From assembly GCF_013315695.1 (NCBI RefSeq), contig NZ_CP054353.1: 64,000 nucleotides of DNA. One strand, 5' to 3'. A program made the translations under genes and the position numbers. The first letter of the stretch is position 1. Each line of letters starts with the position of its first letter. This document shows, piece by piece, positions 37,288-47,992 of this stretch. Source of the stretch: Escherichia coli. GTDB taxonomy: Bacteria > Pseudomonadota > Gammaproteobacteria > Enterobacterales > Enterobacteriaceae. The notes under the pieces were generated by a model. That model made no database searches. It was not told the DNA's origin and saw only the letters and a program-made list of their open reading frames with translations.

Positions 37288-38022
37288 CTACTTATTTTTT
37301 AACCTGATTAAATTAGTTAGAATAGCCCTGTACTTCCATAACAGCCAGCAAGTCGCAATGGACATTAATGCAAGTAAGATAGAAACCGGCATAGTCTTAT
37401 CATAAGCAAAAATAGGTTCGTTAATTTCATATGTTGGTGCTTGTTCAATAATATCTCTTCGTTTTGACAATACGACTGAAATATTCTCATATTGTACGCT
37501 TGCAAAGCTATTAACAATAAATCTCTTAATGTCATTTATTTTTATTTCTGGATTGATATCTTTTTCATATACAGCAAGTACAGAAATATGAATTGGTAAA
37601 GCAGTTTTGCCACTATCACCTGTATCAACATCGTAACTAACATGTACTCTTGAAGAAACAATGCCATCCATAATTTTGAGAGATTGCTCCAAACGCTGTT
37701 CAATAGCAGAATACAATCTTGCTTTTTCCGCTCGTGGAGAGGAAACGAGTGCATCTGCAGGAAACATCTGCGATATTTGAATATCAGGCTTACCCGGGAG
37801 ATTGTAGATTTTTAGCCAATCCACCGCAGAAGCAAAATCCGTTGGTTCTACATAGATTGAAAATCCAATTTTGCCTTGATCCTTCTTCTCAGCATTAATA
37901 TTATGTCTTTGTAAAACAGCAAGGACATCATTAGCTTGCTGTTGATCAAGATGGTTCAGTAATTCCTGCTGCTTGCAACCGCACAACAGCAGGATAAACA
38001 AGAATAATGATATATATTTCAT
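37288..38022 (-). CDS. eprK: T3SS inner-membrane ring lipoprotein (PrgK/EscJ/SctJ family)
   Basis: 244-aa ORF with lipoprotein signal (FILLLCGCKQ), SctJ-like periplasmic region and C-terminal TM anchor. Confidence 0.8.
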   Translation of the reverse strand: MKYISLFLFILLLCGCKQQELLNHLDQQQANDVLAVLQRHNINAEKKDQGKIGFSIYVEPTDFASAVDWLKIYNLPGKPDIQISQMFPADALVSSPRAEKARLYSAIEQRLEQSLKIMDGIVSSRVHVSYDVDTGDSGKTALPIHISVLAVYEKDINPEIKINDIKRFIVNSFASVQYENISVVLSKRRDIIEQAPTYEINEPIFAYDKTMPVSILLALMSIATCWLLWKYRAILTNLIRLKNK

Positions 38023-38351
38023 GAGCGAGTCAACGTCTCAACTGCAGCGACAATTTTTCTTGCTAATGTTCCCACCAATGAAACCTCGACATTATAATTA
38101 AGCACATGATCCTGCAAGACTAATAATTTTTCAGGAGTTAACCCCTTTTTATCAGACCTTAATGCTTGTAACGCATTTTGCTGCCAATTTTCAGTTTGTA
38201 CCGCATAGTTAGCAAAAGCGGAGATCATTTTATCATCCGGGTTATCAAGATTGAGAACCCGGTCATTTAAATCAATAACTTTCGCTTGCTGTATTTCATG
38301 AGCAGCTGATTGCTCAGCTCTATCAATAGGTGGCATATTGCTTACTGACAT
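38019..38351 (-). CDS. eprJ: T3SS inner rod protein (PrgJ/SctI-like)
   Basis: Small ORF between the needle and SctJ genes; track ORF trimmed to MSVSNMPPID. Confidence 0.6.
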   Translation of the reverse strand: MSVSNMPPIDRAEQSAAHEIQQAKVIDLNDRVLNLDNPDDKMISAFANYAVQTENWQQNALQALRSDKKGLTPEKLLVLQDHVLNYNVEVSLVGTLARKIVAAVETLTRS

Positions 38352-38370
38352 AATAAAATCCTTATCCAGT

Positions 38371-38610
38371 TTAGCGGAAGTTTTGTATGATTGCCGAATC
38401 AAGATCTTTATACGCTTTTACAACGTTAGATTGCGCATTTCGATATAATGTATACTCAGCTAATGCACTCTGATATTCGGCAAGGAATTTCGGGTCGGAA
38501 GGATTGGTTGCTAAATCCTCCAACGCTTTTTCAACTTGCTGGTTCAGATCATCAACGCCCTGATCAAATTGTTTGCTGATATCCATAATATAACCATTCC
38601 AATCTGCCAT
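38371..38610 (-). CDS. eprI: T3SS needle filament protein (PrgI/MxiH/SctF family)
   Basis: 79-aa ORF whose C-terminus (YRNAQSNVVKAYKDLDSAIIQNFR) closely matches the needle-protein C-terminus of Salmonella PrgI. Confidence 0.85.
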   Translation of the reverse strand: MADWNGYIMDISKQFDQGVDDLNQQVEKALEDLATNPSDPKFLAEYQSALAEYTLYRNAQSNVVKAYKDLDSAIIQNFR

Positions 38611-38657
38611 AAGTCCTCCTCAATTATTCCTGAAATGTCCACTTGCTACCTTGAGAC

Positions 38658-39425
38658 GGTGATGCTGCCAACTTACTGATTTAGTGTATGATGGTGTTTT
38701 TGAGGTGCTCCAGTGGCTTCTGTTTCTATCAGCTGTCCCTCCTGTTCAGCTACTGACGGGGTGGTGCGTAACGGCAAAAGCACCGCCGGACATCAGCGCT
38801 ATCTCTGCTCTCACTGCCGTAAAACATGGCAACTGCAGTTCACTTACACCGCTTCTCAACCCGGTACGCACCAGAAAATCATTGATATGGCCATGAATGG
38901 CGTTGGATGCCGGGCAACAGCCCGCATTATGGGCGTTGGCCTCAACACGATTTTACGTCACTTAAAAAACTCAGGCCGCAGTCGGTAACCTCGCGCATAC
39001 AGCCGGGCAGTGACGTCATCGTCTGCGCGGAAATGGACGAACAGTGGGGCTATGTCGGGGCTAAATCGCGCCAGCGCTGGCTGTTTTACGCGTATGACAG
39101 GCTCCGGAAGACGGTTGTTGCGCACGTATTCGGTGAACGCACTATGGCGACGCTGGGGCGTCTTATGAGCCTGCTGTCACCCTTTGACGTGGTGATATGG
39201 ATGACGGATGGCTGGCCGCTGTATGAATCCCGCCTGAAGGGAAAGCTGCACGTAATCAGCAAGCGATATACGCAGCGAATTGAGCGGCATAACCTGAATC
39301 TGAGGCAGCACCTGGCACGGCTGGGACGGAAGTCGCTGTCGTTCTCAAAATCGGTGGAGCTGCATGACAAAGTCATCGGGCATTATCTGAACATAAAACA
39401 CTATCAATAAGTTGGAGTCATTACC
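38658..39425 (+). mobile_element. insAB: IS1 insertion sequence, copy A (768 bp; insA 38713-38988, insB 38907-39410)
   Basis: Terminal inverted repeats ggtgatgctgccaacttactgat ... atcaataagttggagtcattacc; InsA (91 aa) and overlapping InsB (167 aa) frames. Confidence 0.97.
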
Positions 39426-39907
39426 GACTTAATGTTATCCCGATAACTCTTCCACCGCTGCGTGAACGTCAGGAAGATATTGAATTACTGGTGCATTACT
39501 TTTTACATCTGCATACCCGTCGTCTGGGATCGGTTTATCCTGGCATTGCTCCGGATGTCGTCGAAATATTGCGTAAGCATCGTTGGCCCGGAAACCTGCG
39601 CGAGTTAAGCAATTTGATGGAATATCTGGTTAACGTGGTTCCTTCAGGTGAAGTTATCGACAGCACGCTATTGCCACCAAATCTGCTGAATAATGGCACA
39701 ACGGAGCAAAGTGATGTAACAGAGGTCAGTGAGGCGCACCTGTCACTCGATGATGCGGGCGGCACGGCGCTGGAGGAGATGGAAAAGCAAATGATCCGCG
39801 AGGCGCTTTCACGTCATAACAGCAAGAAGGAAGTTGCTGATGAACTGGGCATCGGCATTGCTACGCTCTATCGCAAGATTAAGAAATATGAGTTGTTAAA
39901 CACATAA
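39426..39907 (+). pseudogene. ygeV: 3-prime fragment of sigma-54-dependent activator gene ygeV, truncated by IS1
   Basis: The frame is open from the first base after IS1 (LNVIPITLPPLRERQEDIELLVHYFLHLH...), encoding only the end of the AAA+ domain and the C-terminal Fis-type HTH; no N-terminal domain is present. Confidence 0.8.
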
Positions 39908-39946
39908 CCTCAGTGAATCCGGTCTGAATTCAGGCCGGATATCCTT

Positions 39947-40426
39947 TTACTTCGTTTTCTCGCAATCCAGAACTGTATTTACAATCATCTGATACCCCGT
40001 GCAGCGACAAAGATTTCCCGCCAGTCCGCGACGAATTTCCGTAATGGTTAATGGCTTCTCGCGTGGTTTCGCCAGCATTGCCGTGGTAGCCATAATCAGG
40101 CCAGGCGTACAAAACCCGCACTGCACTGCGCCGGATTTCGCATAAGCCTGCTGAACATGAGAAAGTTTTCCGCCTTTCGCTTCACCTTCAAGCGTGCGGA
40201 TCTCTTTTCCTTCAGCCCAGGCGGCAAGGTATAAGCAACTGTCTATTGCTGTGCCGTCGACCAGCACCGTACAGGCACCACATTCACCCACGCAGCACCC
40301 TTGTTTGACACTTAGCAGTCCTTGTTCGCGGAGTAATTCCGAGAGCGGCGTGCCTGGTGCGGCATGAAGCTGAAAAGGCATCCCGTTAATGGTGCATTCG
40401 ATGGTAATTGTTTCGCTGTGATTCAT
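39947..40426 (-). CDS. xdhC: xanthine dehydrogenase Fe-S subunit (2Fe-2S ferredoxin-like)
   Basis: 159-aa ORF with two [2Fe-2S] cysteine clusters ([11 protein letters not shown] and CGFCTPG). Confidence 0.9.
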
Positions 40427-41301
40427 TGCAATTTTCCCCCCGCCGCGGCGACGGCTTCGCTAATCACTTTTTTGGTCATCGTCTGGATGAGATGCAGACG
40501 AAACTCTTTACTGGCCCGCCATGAAGAACGCGGGGCGACATCTTGCAGGACAGATTCGCTGATAGCTTCCAGCGTTTGCAGGTTTAATGGCGCATTTTGT
40601 GCAGTCTGTTCGGCATGTTGGCAGCGAATCGGCGTTGGCGCGGCAACACCAAATGCCAGGCGTAATTCGCTGAAATTGCCGTTATCCAGTCGGCAATGTG
40701 CGGCACAGCCAATCGTTGAAATATCCATTGCGTCGCGCATGGCATATTTAAAATGCGCGCTGCCCGCGTGTTCTTTCGGCTGGGGCGGAAAATGAAAGGC
40801 GACAAGGATTTCGTCATGCTCAAGAGACACTTTGCCCGGCCCAGTGTGAAAGCCATTAATCGGGACGAAACGAACACCGCGCGGGGAGTGAATCTCCAGT
40901 GTCGCGTCATAAATTAGCGTTGGCGTGGCAGAATCTGCGCTGGTAGCACCGTTGCAAATATTTCCACCGTAGGTAGCGACGTTACGGATCTGCGGTCCGG
41001 CAATGGACGAGGCCGCAGCACATAACGCTGGGAGATGACGTTGAGTTACAGGATCTTCAATGAGCTGGGTAAATGTCGTTGCAGAGCCGATACGTAGTGA
41101 GCCATCTTCCGCCAGCGTAATTCCCCGCAGCTCCGCCAGATTATGAATATCAACAATATGGCGATAACGGTCATTGTGATGGTGGAGCTGAATCAGTACG
41201 TCAGTGCCACCGGCGAGCAGTTTGGCCTGCGGGTTGTCAGCCAGCAGGTTGATGGCATCGGCAAGGGTTGCTGCGCGATGGTAAGAAGCAAAATCAAACA
41301 T
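40423..41301 (-). CDS. xdhB: xanthine dehydrogenase FAD-binding subunit
   Basis: 292-aa ORF with CO dehydrogenase flavoprotein-like sequence; overlaps xdhC by 4 nt. Confidence 0.9.
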
Positions 41302-41311
41302 GATGTTATCC

Positions 41312-43570
41312 TCAAATCAATCCTGCCAGATGGAACTCTTCATATAACCGTTTTGGCGTCAGCGGCAGTGTATTGATTGCAACACCGGTAGCCATCTTCA
41401 CCGCGTTACGAATAGCAGCGGCAACAGGAATTATTGGTGGCTCACCCAGTGACTTATGTCCGTATGCGGATTGCGGCTCATTGATTTCGACGAACGCGCT
41501 TTCCAGTTGTGGCAGATCCGGCATGGTCGGCATTTTGTAATCCAGCAGATTGGGGTTACGGACCACGCCGCTTTTCGCATCGATGATCATCTCTTCAAAT
41601 AGCGCCCAGCCAATGCCCATTCCCATTCCGCCGTGTACCTGACCTTCTGCCAGCAGCGGATTTAGAATATGCCCCGAATCATGAACGTTGAGGATGCGGT
41701 TGATGGTGACTTTGCACAGTGCAATATCGACCGTCAGATCAACAAAGGTACAGCCGAACGCCGGTGGGTTAGTGGTGGTTTTGATGGAGCTTTCAGCAGA
41801 GAGCTGCCCGCCGCGTTCAGGGTGGTAGAAAGCGTCCATCGCCAAATCTTTTAACGACATTAACGGTTCTTCCGGTCGTTCAATCAGCACGATATGGCCT
41901 TTTATCAGGGTCAGATTCATCGCTGACTGATGTAGCATGACTGCGGCGTGAGCGATGATTTTCTCTTTTAATAACAGTGCCGCACTGCGCAGCGCAGGCG
42001 CGGCAACATAGCTCTGGCGTGAGGCAAATGCGCCGGGATCGAACGGCGTAACATCGGTATCTTGTGTTGAAATAACGCGAACGTCGCTGACCGGAACCCC
42101 CACGGTTTCTGCCACCATTTGCGAGAAGACGGTGTCGGCACCCTGACCGATTTCCGTCGCGCCGCTTTGCACGTTGATGGTTCCATCCTGATTCATCAGA
42201 AGGCGCGCGCCTGCTATTTCTACGCCGACAGGCCAGGTGTTCGAGGTGTAGCTAAAACAGGCGACGCCAACGCCGCGGCGTAAATTGCCTTTCTGGTTCT
42301 GGCACTCTGCACGGCGTTTTTCCCATTCAAAGATTTTCCGGCCTTTTTCAAGACACTCCGGCAACCCTGCGCTGTAAATACGTTTGCCCGTGAGCGGATT
42401 AGCATCTCCTTCGCGGGCGGCGTTGCGTAAACGAATTTCAACAGGATCAATACCTAACGCTGTCGCGGCGTCATCAAGCATAGACTCAACGGCAAATACG
42501 ACTTGTGGCGCGCCATAACCACGCATCGCACCAGCTGAGGGGAGGTTGGTATAGCAGGTCTTTGAACTGTAAGCGTAGGCACAACGAGGATAAAGGTAAG
42601 CGACTTTATTCCCCCCCGCAGAAGCGATGGAGTGCCCGTGAGATGCGTAAGCGCCGGTGTTAGACAGAACATCCAGACTATAACCTTTCAATGTTCCGTC
42701 GCGGTTCACGCCCATTTGCCCGTCAATAGTAAAAGCGTGGCGGGTACGGGTTGCGAGGAAACACTCTTCACGGCTAAGGGAAACTTTCATCGGAATGCCG
42801 CCAAGCTTGCTGGTCAGGAATGCCGCCATTGGCTCTTCCAGTACATCCTGTTTATTACCAAAACCGCCACCGACAAACGGTTTGATGACTCGTACGCATG
42901 ACCAGGGAATATTCAGCGCCTGACCAACCACACGGCGAACAATGTGTGGGATCTGGGTGCTGGAAACGATGGTAATTCGCGAGTCATCCTCCATCCATGC
43001 CAGCGATGTCACGCTTTCCATGTGACAATGTTGAATGACCGGCGTCTGATAGTGCCCCTGTACCTGGTAGTCGGCGGCATCGATTGTTTGTTGGACATTG
43101 CCCGTCGACATCGTGCTTTGTTTTAGTAAATTGCCGCCGTTATGGATTGGTTCAGCGTCATCAGCCAGCGCCGCTTCTGGGGTGGTGATAACGGGTAATT
43201 CTTGCCACTCAATGCTGACCAATTGCGCCGCTTTTTCTGCCGTGAGTTCATCACGGGCCACGACGATGGCAACGGCGTCACCATGGTGACGAACATGGCG
43301 AGTTAGCAGTGCGCGATCGGCGGTATCGCGCTTGTTTTCGTCAAGTGTCCAGGCATGCCCAGCTGTAGCGAATGGGATATCAGGCACATCTTCCCAGGTA
43401 AAAATCGCCAGTACGCCCGGTAAACTTCTGGCTTGTTCATCATTAATACTTACGGCATAACCATGTGCGATAGGGCTACGTACATATTTCGCGTAACACA
43501 TGCCCGCCATAACATAATCGTCAGTATATCGTGCCCGCCCGGTGACCTTAGCAATGGCATCTACGCGCAT
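41312..43570 (-). CDS. xdhA: xanthine dehydrogenase molybdopterin-binding subunit
   Basis: Track ORF trimmed to MRVDAIAKVTGRARYTDD..., 752 aa, aldehyde oxidase/xanthine dehydrogenase family. Confidence 0.92.
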   Translation of the reverse strand: MRVDAIAKVTGRARYTDDYVMAGMCYAKYVRSPIAHGYAVSINDEQARSLPGVLAIFTWEDVPDIPFATAGHAWTLDENKRDTADRALLTRHVRHHGDAVAIVVARDELTAEKAAQLVSIEWQELPVITTPEAALADDAEPIHNGGNLLKQSTMSTGNVQQTIDAADYQVQGHYQTPVIQHCHMESVTSLAWMEDDSRITIVSSTQIPHIVRRVVGQALNIPWSCVRVIKPFVGGGFGNKQDVLEEPMAAFLTSKLGGIPMKVSLSREECFLATRTRHAFTIDGQMGVNRDGTLKGYSLDVLSNTGAYASHGHSIASAGGNKVAYLYPRCAYAYSSKTCYTNLPSAGAMRGYGAPQVVFAVESMLDDAATALGIDPVEIRLRNAAREGDANPLTGKRIYSAGLPECLEKGRKIFEWEKRRAECQNQKGNLRRGVGVACFSYTSNTWPVGVEIAGARLLMNQDGTINVQSGATEIGQGADTVFSQMVAETVGVPVSDVRVISTQDTDVTPFDPGAFASRQSYVAAPALRSAALLLKEKIIAHAAVMLHQSAMNLTLIKGHIVLIERPEEPLMSLKDLAMDAFYHPERGGQLSAESSIKTTTNPPAFGCTFVDLTVDIALCKVTINRILNVHDSGHILNPLLAEGQVHGGMGMGIGWALFEEMIIDAKSGVVRNPNLLDYKMPTMPDLPQLESAFVEINEPQSAYGHKSLGEPPIIPVAAAIRNAVKMATGVAINTLPLTPKRLYEEFHLAGLI

Positions 43571-44024
43571 GCATGATTCACCTGTAGCGGTTGCTTCCCG
43601 CGCTTCCATAGAAATCCCCTCGATTTGAACATTTGGTTCTTATGGCAAAGATTTAGTCTAAGCAGGCAAGATTTACGCCAGAAACGACGATAAGCGTTAA
43701 GGGAGGAAGGAAGTGTGATGATGTTAAAAAAACACAGATATGATACGAAACAGGACCCTGAATAGGGGCAGTGATACGTATCAATATCAGTGGCGATAAA
43801 ATCAATGTGATAAATTGGGATTATTACGCATCAGGATGGGAAATAGGGTAAATGAGTCAGGAAATTCGATACCTCTACAGTGAATATTTTGCTGATGATA
43901 CTTCCCTTTGCCAAATGAAATTAACCTCTTTCTCTATTACCGCGTTTTTCCAGAAGCAAGAGATTGGGTATCAAGAGGCTGGCTGCTATGATATGGCGTC
44001 TTGTTTTTTAAGCGAGGAAAGATT

Positions 44025-44777
44025 TTGAGTGCGGGACGCCTGAATAAAAAATCTCTGGGTATCGTGATGTTGTTATCGGTTGGACTGCTTTTGGCGGGCT
44101 GCTCGGGTAGCAAATCATCCGATACAGGAACGTATTCCGGCTCCGTTTACACCGTGAAACGGGGGGATACGCTATATCGTATTTCGCGCACCACGGGAAC
44201 CAGCGTAAAAGAGCTGGCGCGACTGAACGGCATTTCCCCCCCTTACACCATTGAAGTTGGTCAGAAACTAAAACTGGGTGGGGCGAAAAGTAGCAGTACA
44301 CGTAAATCAACCGCCAAATCAACGACCAAAACCGCATCGGTTACACCGTCATCAGCAGTACCGAAATCTTCCTGGCCGCCAGTAGGGCAACGTTGTTGGT
44401 TATGGCCAACGACAGGGAAAGTTATCATGCCGTATTCGACAGCTGATGGCGGCAATAAAGGGATTGATATCTCAGCTCCACGGGGTACACCTATTTACGC
44501 TGCGGGTGCAGGAAAGGTGGTGTATGTGGGCAACCAGCTGCGTGGCTACGGTAATCTCATCATGATTAAACACAGTGAAGATTACATTACGGCTTACGCC
44601 CATAATGACACGATGCTGGTAAATAATGGGCAAAGCGTGAAGGCTGGGCAAAAAATCGCCACTATGGGGAGCACTGATGCGGCATCTGTTCGCCTGCATT
44701 TCCAGATTCGTTACCGTGCAACGGCAATTGATCCGCTACGTTACTTGCCGCCTCAGGGCAGCAAGCCAAAATGCTGA
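44025..44777 (+). CDS. ygeR: LysM + M23 peptidase-family lipoprotein
   Basis: Probable TTG start at 44025 preceded by gaggaaag; lipobox LLLAGCSG, LysM domain (YTVKRGDTLYRISRTTG) and M23/LytM-like C-terminus. Confidence 0.85.
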   Translation: MSAGRLNKKSLGIVMLLSVGLLLAGCSGSKSSDTGTYSGSVYTVKRGDTLYRISRTTGTSVKELARLNGISPPYTIEVGQKLKLGGAKSSSTRKSTAKSTTKTASVTPSSAVPKSSWPPVGQRCWLWPTTGKVIMPYSTADGGNKGIDISAPRGTPIYAAGAGKVVYVGNQLRGYGNLIMIKHSEDYITAYAHNDTMLVNNGQSVKAGQKIATMGSTDAASVRLHFQIRYRATAIDPLRYLPPQGSKPKC

Positions 44778-44855
44778 TGGCGAATTAATCAGCAGTCAGC
44801 AGCGCGGCACTTGCTAAGGAGAGCGTAAGGTTTATAATGCCTTACGCATCTCGAA

Positions 44856-44929
44856 GCGGGCGTAGTTCAATGGTAGAACGAGAGCTTCCCAAGCTCTATA
44901 CGAGGGTTCGATTCCCTTCGCCCGCTCCA
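44856..44929 (+). tRNA. glyU: tRNA-Gly (anticodon CCC)
   Basis: 74-nt cloverleaf gcgggcgtagttcaatggtagaacgagagcttcccaagctctatacgagggttcgattcccttcgcccgctcca; anticodon loop ttCCCaa; 3-prime CCA encoded. Confidence 0.95.
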
Positions 44930-45162
44930 ATTTATCTTCACCTCATCAATCTGCCATTTTTGCTGTATCTGATTTTCTATATTATCTTAATTCAATCGCT
45001 TCAGACTTTTCGCAATCGCTGTAACACTTCCCCATTTTTTTGTAAATAAAAAGCGTTTACGCAATGCAATCCTTTTGTAACAACCCAGGTAAAATACCTT
45101 ATTTTCAAGTTGTTAAATAAGTGGTTATCTACGCTTTTAACAAACGATTGATGGAATCTTTT

Positions 45163-46608
45163 ATGAAAGGGAAATCTACATTAACTCTTCTGCTCGCTGG
45201 TATATTTTCGTACGGCACATGCCAGGCGGCAGGGGCAGAAGTGACGAGTGAATCTGTATTTAACATTCTTAATTCCACGGGGGCAGCAACTGATAAAAGT
45301 TATTTATCGTTAAATCCAGATAAGTATCCTAATTATCGTCTTCTGATTCACTCAGCCAAATTAAAAAATGAAATAAAGAGCCACTATACCAAAGACGAAA
45401 TTCAAGGATTGTTAACATTAACAGAAAATACACGAAAGTTAACGTTGACGGAGAAACCCTGGGGAACATTTATTCTTGCTTCTACTTTCGAAGATGACAA
45501 AACAGCGGCAGAAACCCACTATGATGCTGTCTGGCTGAGGGATAGTTTATGGGGCTATATGGCATTAGTATCAGATCAGGGAAATAGTGTAGCCGCAAAA
45601 AAGGTTCTGCTCACTCTGTGGGAATATATGTCTACGCCCGACCAGATTAAGCGGATGCAGGACGTCATTAGCAACCCAAAACGACTGGATGGTATTCCTG
45701 GGCAAATGAATGCTGTACATATCCGATTTGACAGCAACTCCCCCGTGATGGCAGATGTGCAGGAAGAAGGCAAGCCGCAGCTGTGGAACCATAAACAAAA
45801 TGATGCGTTAGGTCTTTATCTTGATCTCCTTATACAAGCAATCGACACTGGTACTATTAACGCTGAAGATTGGCAAAAAGGTGACCGATTAAAATCGGTT
45901 GCGCTGCTGATTGCTTATCTGGATAAAGCCAATTTCTATGTTATGGAAGATTCCGGAGCGTGGGAGGAAGATGCCCGATTAAACACATCTTCCGTTGCAC
46001 TGGTGACCTCTGGACTGGAACGTTTGTCAAACCTACTCTCGAAGAAAGACTCTGTTTTTGTCTCTGATTTACTACGCGAAGCTAAAGCCAATGAACTGGA
46101 TGAACCACTTTCAACAACGAGGTTGAACCACCTCATAGATAAAGGTTATGAAAGAATAACGCTACAGCTTGATTTAGGGGGAGAATCTCCTGGTTATCTG
46201 GAAAAAGATAAACATTACAGAGAAGCCGATGCGGCTTTACTTAATGTTATTTATCCTGCAAATCTTTCAAAGATAAACACCAGAAGAAAAGAGCAAGTTC
46301 TAAAAATAGTTAAAAAACTAGCAGGTCCGTATGGTATAAAAAGATACGAGAAGGATAATTATCAGTCGGCAAATTTTTGGTTCAATGATATTAAAACCGA
46401 TACCGATCAAAATTCACATGCGAAAAGAGAAATGAGCTTCATTCCATCAACAGAAGCAGAATGGTTTTTTGACTCATGGTATGCAAAATCAGCAGCAATT
46501 GTTTATAAAGAATCAAGAAAAGAAGAGTATTTGAATGACTCAGTGCAATTTATGAATAGATCATTGGCCCAAATAACAGGCGAGAAGGTAATGACTCCAA
46601 CTTATTGA
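45163..46608 (+). CDS. glycoside hydrolase family 15 (glucoamylase-like) lipoprotein, ygeQ-like; 3-prime end runs into IS1
   Basis: Long ORF with signal peptide/lipobox ([16 protein letters not shown]) and GH15-like motif (DAVWLRDS); the last ~7 codons and the stop are supplied by IS1 sequence starting at 46587, so the native C-terminus is missing; start codon uncertain (45121-45163). Confidence 0.6.
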
Positions 46609-47354
46609 TAGTGTTTTATGTTCAGATAATGCCCGATGACTTTGTCATGCAGCTCCACCGATTTTGAGAACGACAGCGACTTCCGTCCCAGCCGTGCCAG
46701 GTGCTGCCTCAGATTCAGGTTATGCCGCTCAATTCGCTGCGTATATCGCTTGCTGATTACGTGCAGCTTTCCCTTCAGGCGGGATTCATACAGCGGCCAG
46801 CCATCCGTCATCCATATCACCACGTCAAAGGGTGACAGCAGGCTCATAAGACGCCCCAGCGTCGCCATAGTGCGTTCACCGAATACGTGCGCAACAACCG
46901 TCTTCCGGAGCCTGTCATACGCGTAAAACAGCCAGCGCTGGCGCGATTTAGCCCCGACATAGCCCCACTGTTCGTCCATTTCCGCGCAGACGATGACGTC
47001 ACTGCCCGGCTGTATGCGCGAGGTTACCGACTGCGGCCTGAGTTTTTTAAGTGACGTAAAATCGTGTTGAGGCCAACGCCCATAATGCGGGCTGTTGCCC
47101 GGCATCCAACGCCATTCATGGCCATATCAATGATTTTCTGGTGCGTACCGGGTTGAGAAGCGGTGTAAGTGAACTGCAGTTGCCATGTTTTACGGCAGTG
47201 AGAGCAGAGATAGCGCTGATGTCCGGCGGTGCTTTTGCCGTTACGCACCACCCCGTCAGTAGCTGAACAGGAGGGACAGCTGATAGAAACAGAAGCCACT
47301 GGAGCACCTCAAAAACACCATCATACACTAAATCAGTAAGTTGGCAGCATCACC
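46587..47354 (-). mobile_element. insAB: IS1 insertion sequence, copy B (768 bp; insA 47024-47299, insB 46602-47105), inverted relative to copy A
   Basis: InsA and InsB ORFs identical in protein sequence to copy A but on the minus strand; terminal inverted repeats at 46587 and 47354. Confidence 0.97.
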
Positions 47355-47992
47355 CGATGGGGATGTTCCTGGCACTGGGTGAAATAGTCGGTCGTAAACT
47401 CTCTTCACACGATATTATTCGCGGGCTGCGTGTCGATGGCGTAGGGACAATGATAGGCGGAACGTTTAACAGCTTCCCCCACACGTCATTTTCACAAAAC
47501 GTTGGCCTGGTTAGCGTGACGCGCGTTCATAGCCGCTGGGTGTGTATTTCTTCGGGAATTATATTAATCCTGTTTGGCATGGTGCCAAAAATGGCGGTGC
47601 TGGTCGCCTCCATTCCGCAATTTGTGCTGGGCGGTGCTGGGCTGGTGATGTTCGGCATGGTACTGGCGACAGGGATTCGAATTCTGTCGCGCTGTAACTA
47701 CACCACCAACCGTTACAACCTCTATATTGTGGCGATCAGTCTCGGCGTTGGCATGACTCCGACGCTCTCTCACGATTTCTTTTCTAAGTTACCGGCCGTA
47801 CTGCAACCGTTGCTGCATAGCGGCATTATGCTCGCAACCCTTAGCGCCGTTGTGCTGAACGTCTTCTTTAATGGCTATCAGCATCATGCTGATCTGGTGA
47901 AGGAATCCGTCTCTGATAAAGATTTAAAAGTCAGGACAGTACGTATGTGGCTTCTGATGCGCAAGCTGAAGAAAAATGAGCATGGAGAATAA
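47355..47992 (+). pseudogene. ygfU: 3-prime fragment of nucleobase:cation symporter gene (ygfU/uacT-like), truncated by IS1
   Basis: Frame opens directly at the IS1 boundary and encodes only the C-terminal ~210 residues (several TM helices) of an NCS2-family permease; N-terminal part absent. Confidence 0.75.

Follow-up and report, generated by a model that had tools for sequence, protein, structure and literature searches.

An IS1-truncated pkgA gene beside glyU in the ETT2 region of Escherichia coli

In a 64,000-nucleotide stretch of Escherichia coli DNA (the window), an open reading frame with glucoamylase-like features runs into an IS1 element and takes its stop codon from it. Does this frame encode an essentially complete protein or what is left of one, and which events placed it against IS1? 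Our preferred answer, to which we give a probability of about 90%, is that it is a dead remnant of pkgA, formed by an IS1 adjacent deletion amid the IS1-driven decay of ETT2.

The reading frame and its junction with IS1

The frame is pkgA (ygeQ in K-12, ECs3736/37 in Sakai), a glucoamylase/phosphorylase-kinase-like gene; we call the window copy pkgA' and its product PkgA'. In the account that PMC3977695 gives of Pallen (2003, Protein Sci 12:1804), pkgA, the 'phosphorylase kinase and glucoamylase' homologue, lies at that end of ETT2 which adjoins glyU. The gene corresponds to b2863 with b2862 in K-12, and in Sakai to two ORFs, ECs3736 and ECs3737 (PMC3977695). A literature search for 'ygeQ' returned nothing relevant. 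The features of the gene and its upstream neighbour are as follows.

44856–44929, plus strand: tRNA-Gly(CCC), glyU, from ARAGORN and the RefSeq annotation of homologous loci; ETT2 boundary
45163–46608, plus strand: pkgA' ORF, 481 aa, from the ATG at 45163 (MKGKS...) to the TGA at 46606–46608, from the ORF listing and the raw sequence
45163–46586, plus strand: native pkgA part, codons 1–474 and two bases of codon 475
46587–46608, plus strand: IS1-encoded end of the ORF, comprising the third base of codon 475 (Lys), VMTPTY and the TGA, with a TAG directly after
45163–45231, plus strand: N-terminal export signal, carrying C17Y at the lipobox cysteine and T23A, from allele alignment
45523–45546, plus strand: DAVWLRDS motif, residues 121–128, invariant in 97 homologues
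45961–45969, plus strand: W267-E268-E269, probable general acid motif, invariant in 97 homologues and kept in the truncated gene

The preliminary description had an uninterrupted frame of about 480 codons entering IS1 at 46587, with VMTPTY and the stop codon supplied by the IS1 terminal inverted repeat, and both points hold. The ORF list and the raw letters agree on 481 codons, open throughout 45163–46608. The longest ORF at this locus begins upstream, at a GTG at 45121, while the start chosen by PGAP in a sister genome is the ATG equivalent to 45163. Native pkgA sequence extends to 46586 and the IS1 end GGTAATGACTCCAACTTATTGATAG begins at 46587, giving the in-frame junction ...GGC GAG AA/G GTA ATG ACT CCA ACT TAT TGA, in which VMTPTY and the TGA are purely IS1. 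Codon 475 is a hybrid, its third base coming from IS1 and changing the native AAT (Asn) to AAG (Lys). Translation now reads KVMTPTY, seven foreign C-terminal residues, and stops at the TGA inside IS1; whichever frame enters this IS1 end meets a stop after 0–26 codons.

Two possibilities had been left side by side: a C-terminally truncated or fused variant, or an IS1 whose insertion point nearly coincides with the native stop. Alignment decides for the first. In a DNA alignment with O145 RM9872 and the related isolate AF3, the native frame goes on AAT ATG ATT... for 62 codons, and PkgA' lacks 62 C-terminal residues (about 12% of the length) relative to the 536-aa E. coli protein WP_000676915.1, to which it is 97–98% identical over the 474 retained codons; at most six substitutions separate it from intact alleles. 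Intact homologues measure 536 aa in E. coli, 538 aa in E. albertii and 526 aa in Yersinia, and some 95 more distant homologues from diverse bacteria (490–610 aa) each carry a conserved LPESYN...PLNWxKA end. All of these extend about 60 residues beyond the IS1 junction; the full-length homologues, 500–560 aa in about 100 diverse bacteria, align as far as query residue 525–531 or so.

The locus itself is the ETT2 island, as its low G+C, its position beside glyU, its SPI-1-like T3SS genes and the terminal position of pkgA indicate. The G+C content of pkgA is 40%, against 34% in the ETT2 part at 27900–38657 and 51% in the core neighbours xdh/actS, and homologues of ygeH, pbl, ygeK and eprK/J/I lie at 32–38.6 kb of the window. 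The glyU gene, proposed earlier as an island boundary, lies 233 bp upstream of the pkgA' start and is the documented edge of ETT2 (PMC3977695, PMC11068852). Here ETT2 is heavily deleted and split by an inversion, and pkgA' is parted from what remains of it.

IS1 copies, rearranged joints and a proposed history

The rearranged part of the window comprises these features.

38658–39425, plus strand: IS1 copy A, 768 bp; its IRL adjoins the final 34 nt of eprH, its IRR the ygeV fragment; no target-site duplication
39426–39907, plus strand: C-terminal remnant of ygeV, a sigma-54 regulator gene truncated by IS1 copy A; annotated incomplete, N-terminus missing
39426–46586, no strand assigned: segment 'ygeV, xdhC, xdhB, xdhA, actS/ygeR, glyU, pkgA', 7161 bp between the IS1 copies
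46587–47354, minus strand: IS1 copy B, 768 bp, insA/insB intact; its IRR adjoins pkgA' and its IRL adjoins the uacT fragment; no target-site duplication
47355–47992, plus strand: C-terminal remnant of uacT, a urate permease gene truncated by IS1 copy B; annotated incomplete

Both elements are IS1 by their length, terminal inverted repeats and insA/insB' frames (InsA 91 aa, InsB frame 167 aa), and the annotation of sister genomes places the element in the IS1A family. The two copies are 100% identical and mutually inverted, where no match would be expected by chance. Copy A is flanked by TTGAGAC and GACTTAATG, and copy B by GGCGAGAA and CGATGGGGA. We found no 9-bp duplication, direct or inverted, at the four window joints or at the AF3 joints; as a control, simple IS1 insertions in AF3 are flanked by the 9-bp duplications TCTGGATAA and TGATTTTGT. 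Thus, with no target duplication at either copy, the joints are products of rearrangement. A search of 5,426 complete E. coli genomes found no instance of the joint between eprH' and IS1 on the left of copy A, so that the window comes from a third strain, related to MSB1_4I and AF3.

The preliminary description, which had considered an IS1 insertion, had missed the inversion of the segment that bears pkgA: compared with O157/O145, the 7161 bp between the copies stand in reverse of the standard E. coli gene order. Nor does an insertion describe the joint itself. Across IS1 copy B from pkgA' lies the uacT fragment, which matches only positions 249–386 of the Pfam Xan_ur_permease profile and is followed by idi and lysS, and the missing 612 bp (pkgA 3' end, ortT and intergenic DNA) have no blastn match anywhere in the window.

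Our model is as follows. Intact pkgA, at the ETT2 end next to glyU, would have encoded an exported glycosidase with a GH15-like (alpha/alpha)6 barrel. An IS1 copy may already have been in place, with the uacT fragment on one side of it and the sequence downstream of pkgA-ortT on the other, a state that appears to survive in AF3, where the joint between IS1 and uacT is identical to that of the window and the 612 bp are kept. Genome comparison suggests that IS1 then caused an adjacent deletion of these 612 bp. With them would have gone ortT, the DNA between the two genes and the final 187 bp of pkgA, which would leave codon 474/475 joined to the IRR. This deletion would be one of several IS1-driven events at the locus, the others being the 7.2-kb inversion, the absence of the stretch from ygeV to uacT (which, from the K-12 map, we take to be about 25 kb) and the loss of most ETT2 apparatus genes. 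Adjacent deletions and inversions are reportedly classical products of IS1, described by Reif and Saedler in 1975 and by Turlan and Chandler in 1995. Like such a deletion, the pkgA' joint keeps one IS1 end with its far flank while the DNA beside the other end is lost; like such an inversion, inverted identical copies without target duplications bracket an inverted segment.

A different order of events, in which the joint is older than the inversion, is unlikely, though it is the best of the alternatives. IS1 would first have replaced the 3' end of pkgA through eivC in a genome of normal order, and an inversion and then a deletion from ygeV' to uacT' would have followed. On this view the inversion would have come from intramolecular IS1 transposition. 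A replicative inversion of that kind leaves the IRRs facing one pair of flanks and the IRLs the other, as seen here, where IRR stands beside 'ygeV and pkgA and IRL beside ETT2 and 'uacT. The metagenome contig L012 also speaks for this order: it is 100% identical to 39426–46671 of the window and has the same joint between pkgA' and IS1, together with intact ygeV, ygeW and ygeX. Against it, AF3 and MSB1_4I share the outer joints (EscN'-IRL and IRL-'uacT), and AF3 cannot derive from a genome that had lost the pkgA 3' end and ortT, because it still has them beside the IRR. Moreover, L012 comes from a metagenome assembly, may be chimeric and is only one of about 45 contigs. If it is not chimeric, the order of events that we propose is wrong, and the truncation is unaffected.

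Catalytic residues and fold of the product

The predicted similarity to glucoamylases is real, though marginal. PkgA' matches PF00723 (Glyco_hydro_15) with 25.2 bits against a cut-off of 22 (E = 9.5e-6), over residues 94–409 and profile positions 16–309 of 427; the C-terminal quarter of the profile has no match, and an intact homologue gives the same result as the 481-aa product. An NCBIfam scan yielded no family above its cut-off. The DAVWLRDS motif is present as described, and hhalign to a glucoamylase profile equates W124/R126/D127 with W52/R54/D55 of Aspergillus niger glucoamylase, while in an HMM alignment the motif stands opposite WVRD of PhK-alpha. W267-E268-E269 aligns likewise with W178-E179-E180 of the verified A. 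niger sequence (hhalign) and with PhK-alpha W184-E185 (HMM alignment). By these alignments PkgA' probably retains the GH15 general acid, the equivalent of A. niger E179, as E268.

The PkgA family are the closest bacterial relatives of the D1 domain of PhK alpha/beta. Profile searches of PDB sequences with the family found PhK only and not the GH15 enzymes, and PkgA shares only 12–16% identity with CAZy GH15 enzymes. These enzymes include glucoamylases (A. niger 3eqa, Thermoanaerobacterium 1lf6), isomaltose glucohydrolase (Kribbella 5z3a), glucodextranase (1ulv) and dextran dextrinase (9ju0). Unlike these enzymes, PkgA has about 90 extra residues at its N-terminus, the first of which form a Sec signal peptide, and PkgA' in addition is without the C-terminus that bears the probable base. 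A distant homologue, P0230 (673 aa), a candidate for a canonical bacterial GH15 protein, had no match among PDB sequences. The glucoamylase-like D1 domain of PhK forms part of a regulatory subunit and shows no hydrolase activity that can be detected; E185 and E371 of PhK-alpha correspond to the two catalytic glutamates (PMC10978961). Whereas D1 (8jfk) sits within eukaryotic subunits of 1,100–1,200 aa, PkgA is a stand-alone bacterial protein, predicted to be exported, and in its family every active-site position is invariant.

The lost part bears the family motifs LPESYN and PSPIxPLNWxKA and is among the best conserved stretches of the family. Across 97 homologues, six lost residues are invariant (E491, S492, S507, P511, L512 and W514) and a further eleven are at least 90% conserved (A479, G481, P490, Y493, N494, P506, P508, I509, N513, K516 and A517). 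In a MAFFT alignment of 97 C-termini with verified PhK sequences, E491 of LPESYN stands opposite E371 of PhK-alpha (LPELY). E491 is therefore the probable catalytic base, equivalent to PhK-alpha E371 and A. niger E400, and residue 491 is deleted in the window allele.

Other alignments of the C-terminus were less informative. An hhalign run against a profile of 24 fungal glucoamylases covered residues 116–498, with a probability of only 18%; it confirmed the W-R-D, W-E-E and R394 regions and set A. niger E400 opposite Q470. We judge this Q470 register, which rests on a low-diversity profile, to be a misalignment because helix 13 would sit on a predicted beta strand. Against the single A. niger glucoamylase, hhalign gave only one anchor in local mode (GIKRY..NFWF with VGRYPED..NPWF), and the global mode was meaningless. 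Nothing useful came from Pfam scans of eight isolated C-terminal fragments of the family, from PDB sequence searches with the PkgA C-terminus or, at a permissive E-value, with the PhK-alpha segment, or from hmmsearch and hhalign of the family profile against that segment.

As for the fold, AlphaFold models the intact protein with a pLDDT of 92.7 and places strands 492–498 and 501–506 and helix 513–531 in the deleted part. In the 481-aa product the remaining 11 helices are confidently folded (pLDDT 86.5); the chain ends past helix 454–469 in a low-confidence tail, and pLDDT is lower at 400–430. These models predict an incomplete (alpha/alpha)6 barrel, with the beta hairpin and the last of its twelve helices (513–531) gone, so that the question raised earlier, whether the catalytic barrel is complete, would be answered in the negative. 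Having lost the invariant motifs, the probable base E491, the hairpin and the final helix, the product should no longer hydrolyse glycosides and is probably an unstable protein.

A second lesion lies in the export signal and is older than the truncation. By PROSITE rule PS51257, the signal peptide of a lipoprotein ends in a lipobox of the form [LVI][ASTVI][GAS]-C. The other E. coli alleles that we compared all have Cys at position 17, in LAGIFS-C, which fits the rule, whereas the window allele has Tyr; what remains is YGTC, where Cys20 follows a Thr that the rule disallows. Of the lipoprotein signal described earlier, the N-terminal signal peptide thus stands, with a possible SPase I site (CQA/A) retained, while lipoprotein status does not hold for this allele, from which C17Y removes the lipobox cysteine.

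Could the truncated product retain some of its function or have gained another, such as non-catalytic glycan binding in the periplasm, and be maintained in the lineage? We consider this very unlikely. The frame is otherwise open and close to intact alleles, the allele occurs in many isolates and gut metagenomes, most of the barrel persists in the AlphaFold model, with the W-R-D and WEE sites in it, and PhK alpha/beta provide precedents for non-catalytic GH15-like domains (PMC10978961). However, the IS1 copies are 100% identical and the segment shows 0–2 mismatches among isolates; this near-identity indicates a recent clonal event, and persistence is therefore uninformative about selection. With one helix of the twelve gone, the core of the barrel would be exposed, and the lipobox cysteine is gone from the export signal. 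Furthermore, pkgA has been broken independently in many lineages: K-12 keeps a 264-aa remnant, Sakai and the O157:H7 strain F8952 carry frameshifts, in AF3 the gene is interrupted by IS1, and forms of 493 and 368 aa also exist. By analogy one could go further and have PkgA'-IS1 stably made as such a binder, using W124/R126/D127, E268 and R394 as a preserved sugar-binding half of the active site, or, in a weaker variant, regard the L012 joint as a recurrent IS1 hotspot in pkgA; we find this more far-fetched still.

The allele in other genomes and its meaning

The identical 481-aa protein is encoded on at least 45 independent contigs, including two closed chromosomes (MSB1_4I and an NCTC chromosome), which confirms that the joint between pkgA' and IS1 is no assembly artefact. 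About 41 of the contigs are short-read contigs of 2–10 kb that carry the fusion. The six that we examined end in or just beyond IS1; five are about 7.2 kb long, matching the inverted segment, and three of these five show 0–2 mismatches.

The two weakest explanations are refuted by these data. An IS1 within a few codons of the native stop, leaving an essentially full-length and functional protein with a cosmetic C-terminal change, would suit the PGAP treatment of the product as an ordinary GH15 protein and the confinement of the Pfam match to the retained part, but 62 residues are missing relative to homologues that share a conserved end. Equally untenable is a simple IS1 insertion, or a repeat assembly error, with the gene remainder just past IS1: IS1 is multi-copy, with up to 66 matching places per genome, and a true simple insertion does split pkgA in AF3, but here uacT', idi and lysS lie past an IS1 without a 9-bp duplication, the 612 bp are nowhere in the window, and the same joint recurs in two independently closed chromosomes and about 41 short-read contigs.

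The dead-remnant reading makes pkgA' an ordinary pseudogene, one more case of IS-driven ETT2 decay and biologically minor. Decay of ETT2 by mutational attrition is widespread and well documented (PMC3977695, PMC7058095). The window copy resembles those of K-12 and Sakai in being the same gene, beside glyU and broken; it differs in its lesion, an IS1-mediated 3' deletion with an IS1-encoded tail, and in the inversion that separates it from ETT2. RefSeq holds the same 481-aa protein as WP_271385619.1, labelled 'glycoside hydrolase family 15 protein' by PGAP with no pseudogene flag. It would be better treated as a pseudogene, being without 12% of its length, the invariant motifs and the probable base, and having an IS1-encoded end. 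The IS1 events also take the ygeW-ygfT purine/urate catabolism region from the locus and truncate uacT and ygeV, changes that could matter for phenotype prediction.

Between Yersinia enterocolitica and Commensalibacter the pkgA neighbourhoods have no gene in common, and neither overlaps in content with ETT2; genomic context therefore offers no operon hint to a substrate and does not tie the family generally to type III secretion. Both this and the Sec-type signal speak against an older proposal, that PkgA is a T3SS effector. The intact PkgA family, exported and with invariant active-site residues, is more interesting than the window copy, a point that, in the part of the 2003 work relayed by later literature, had already been made.

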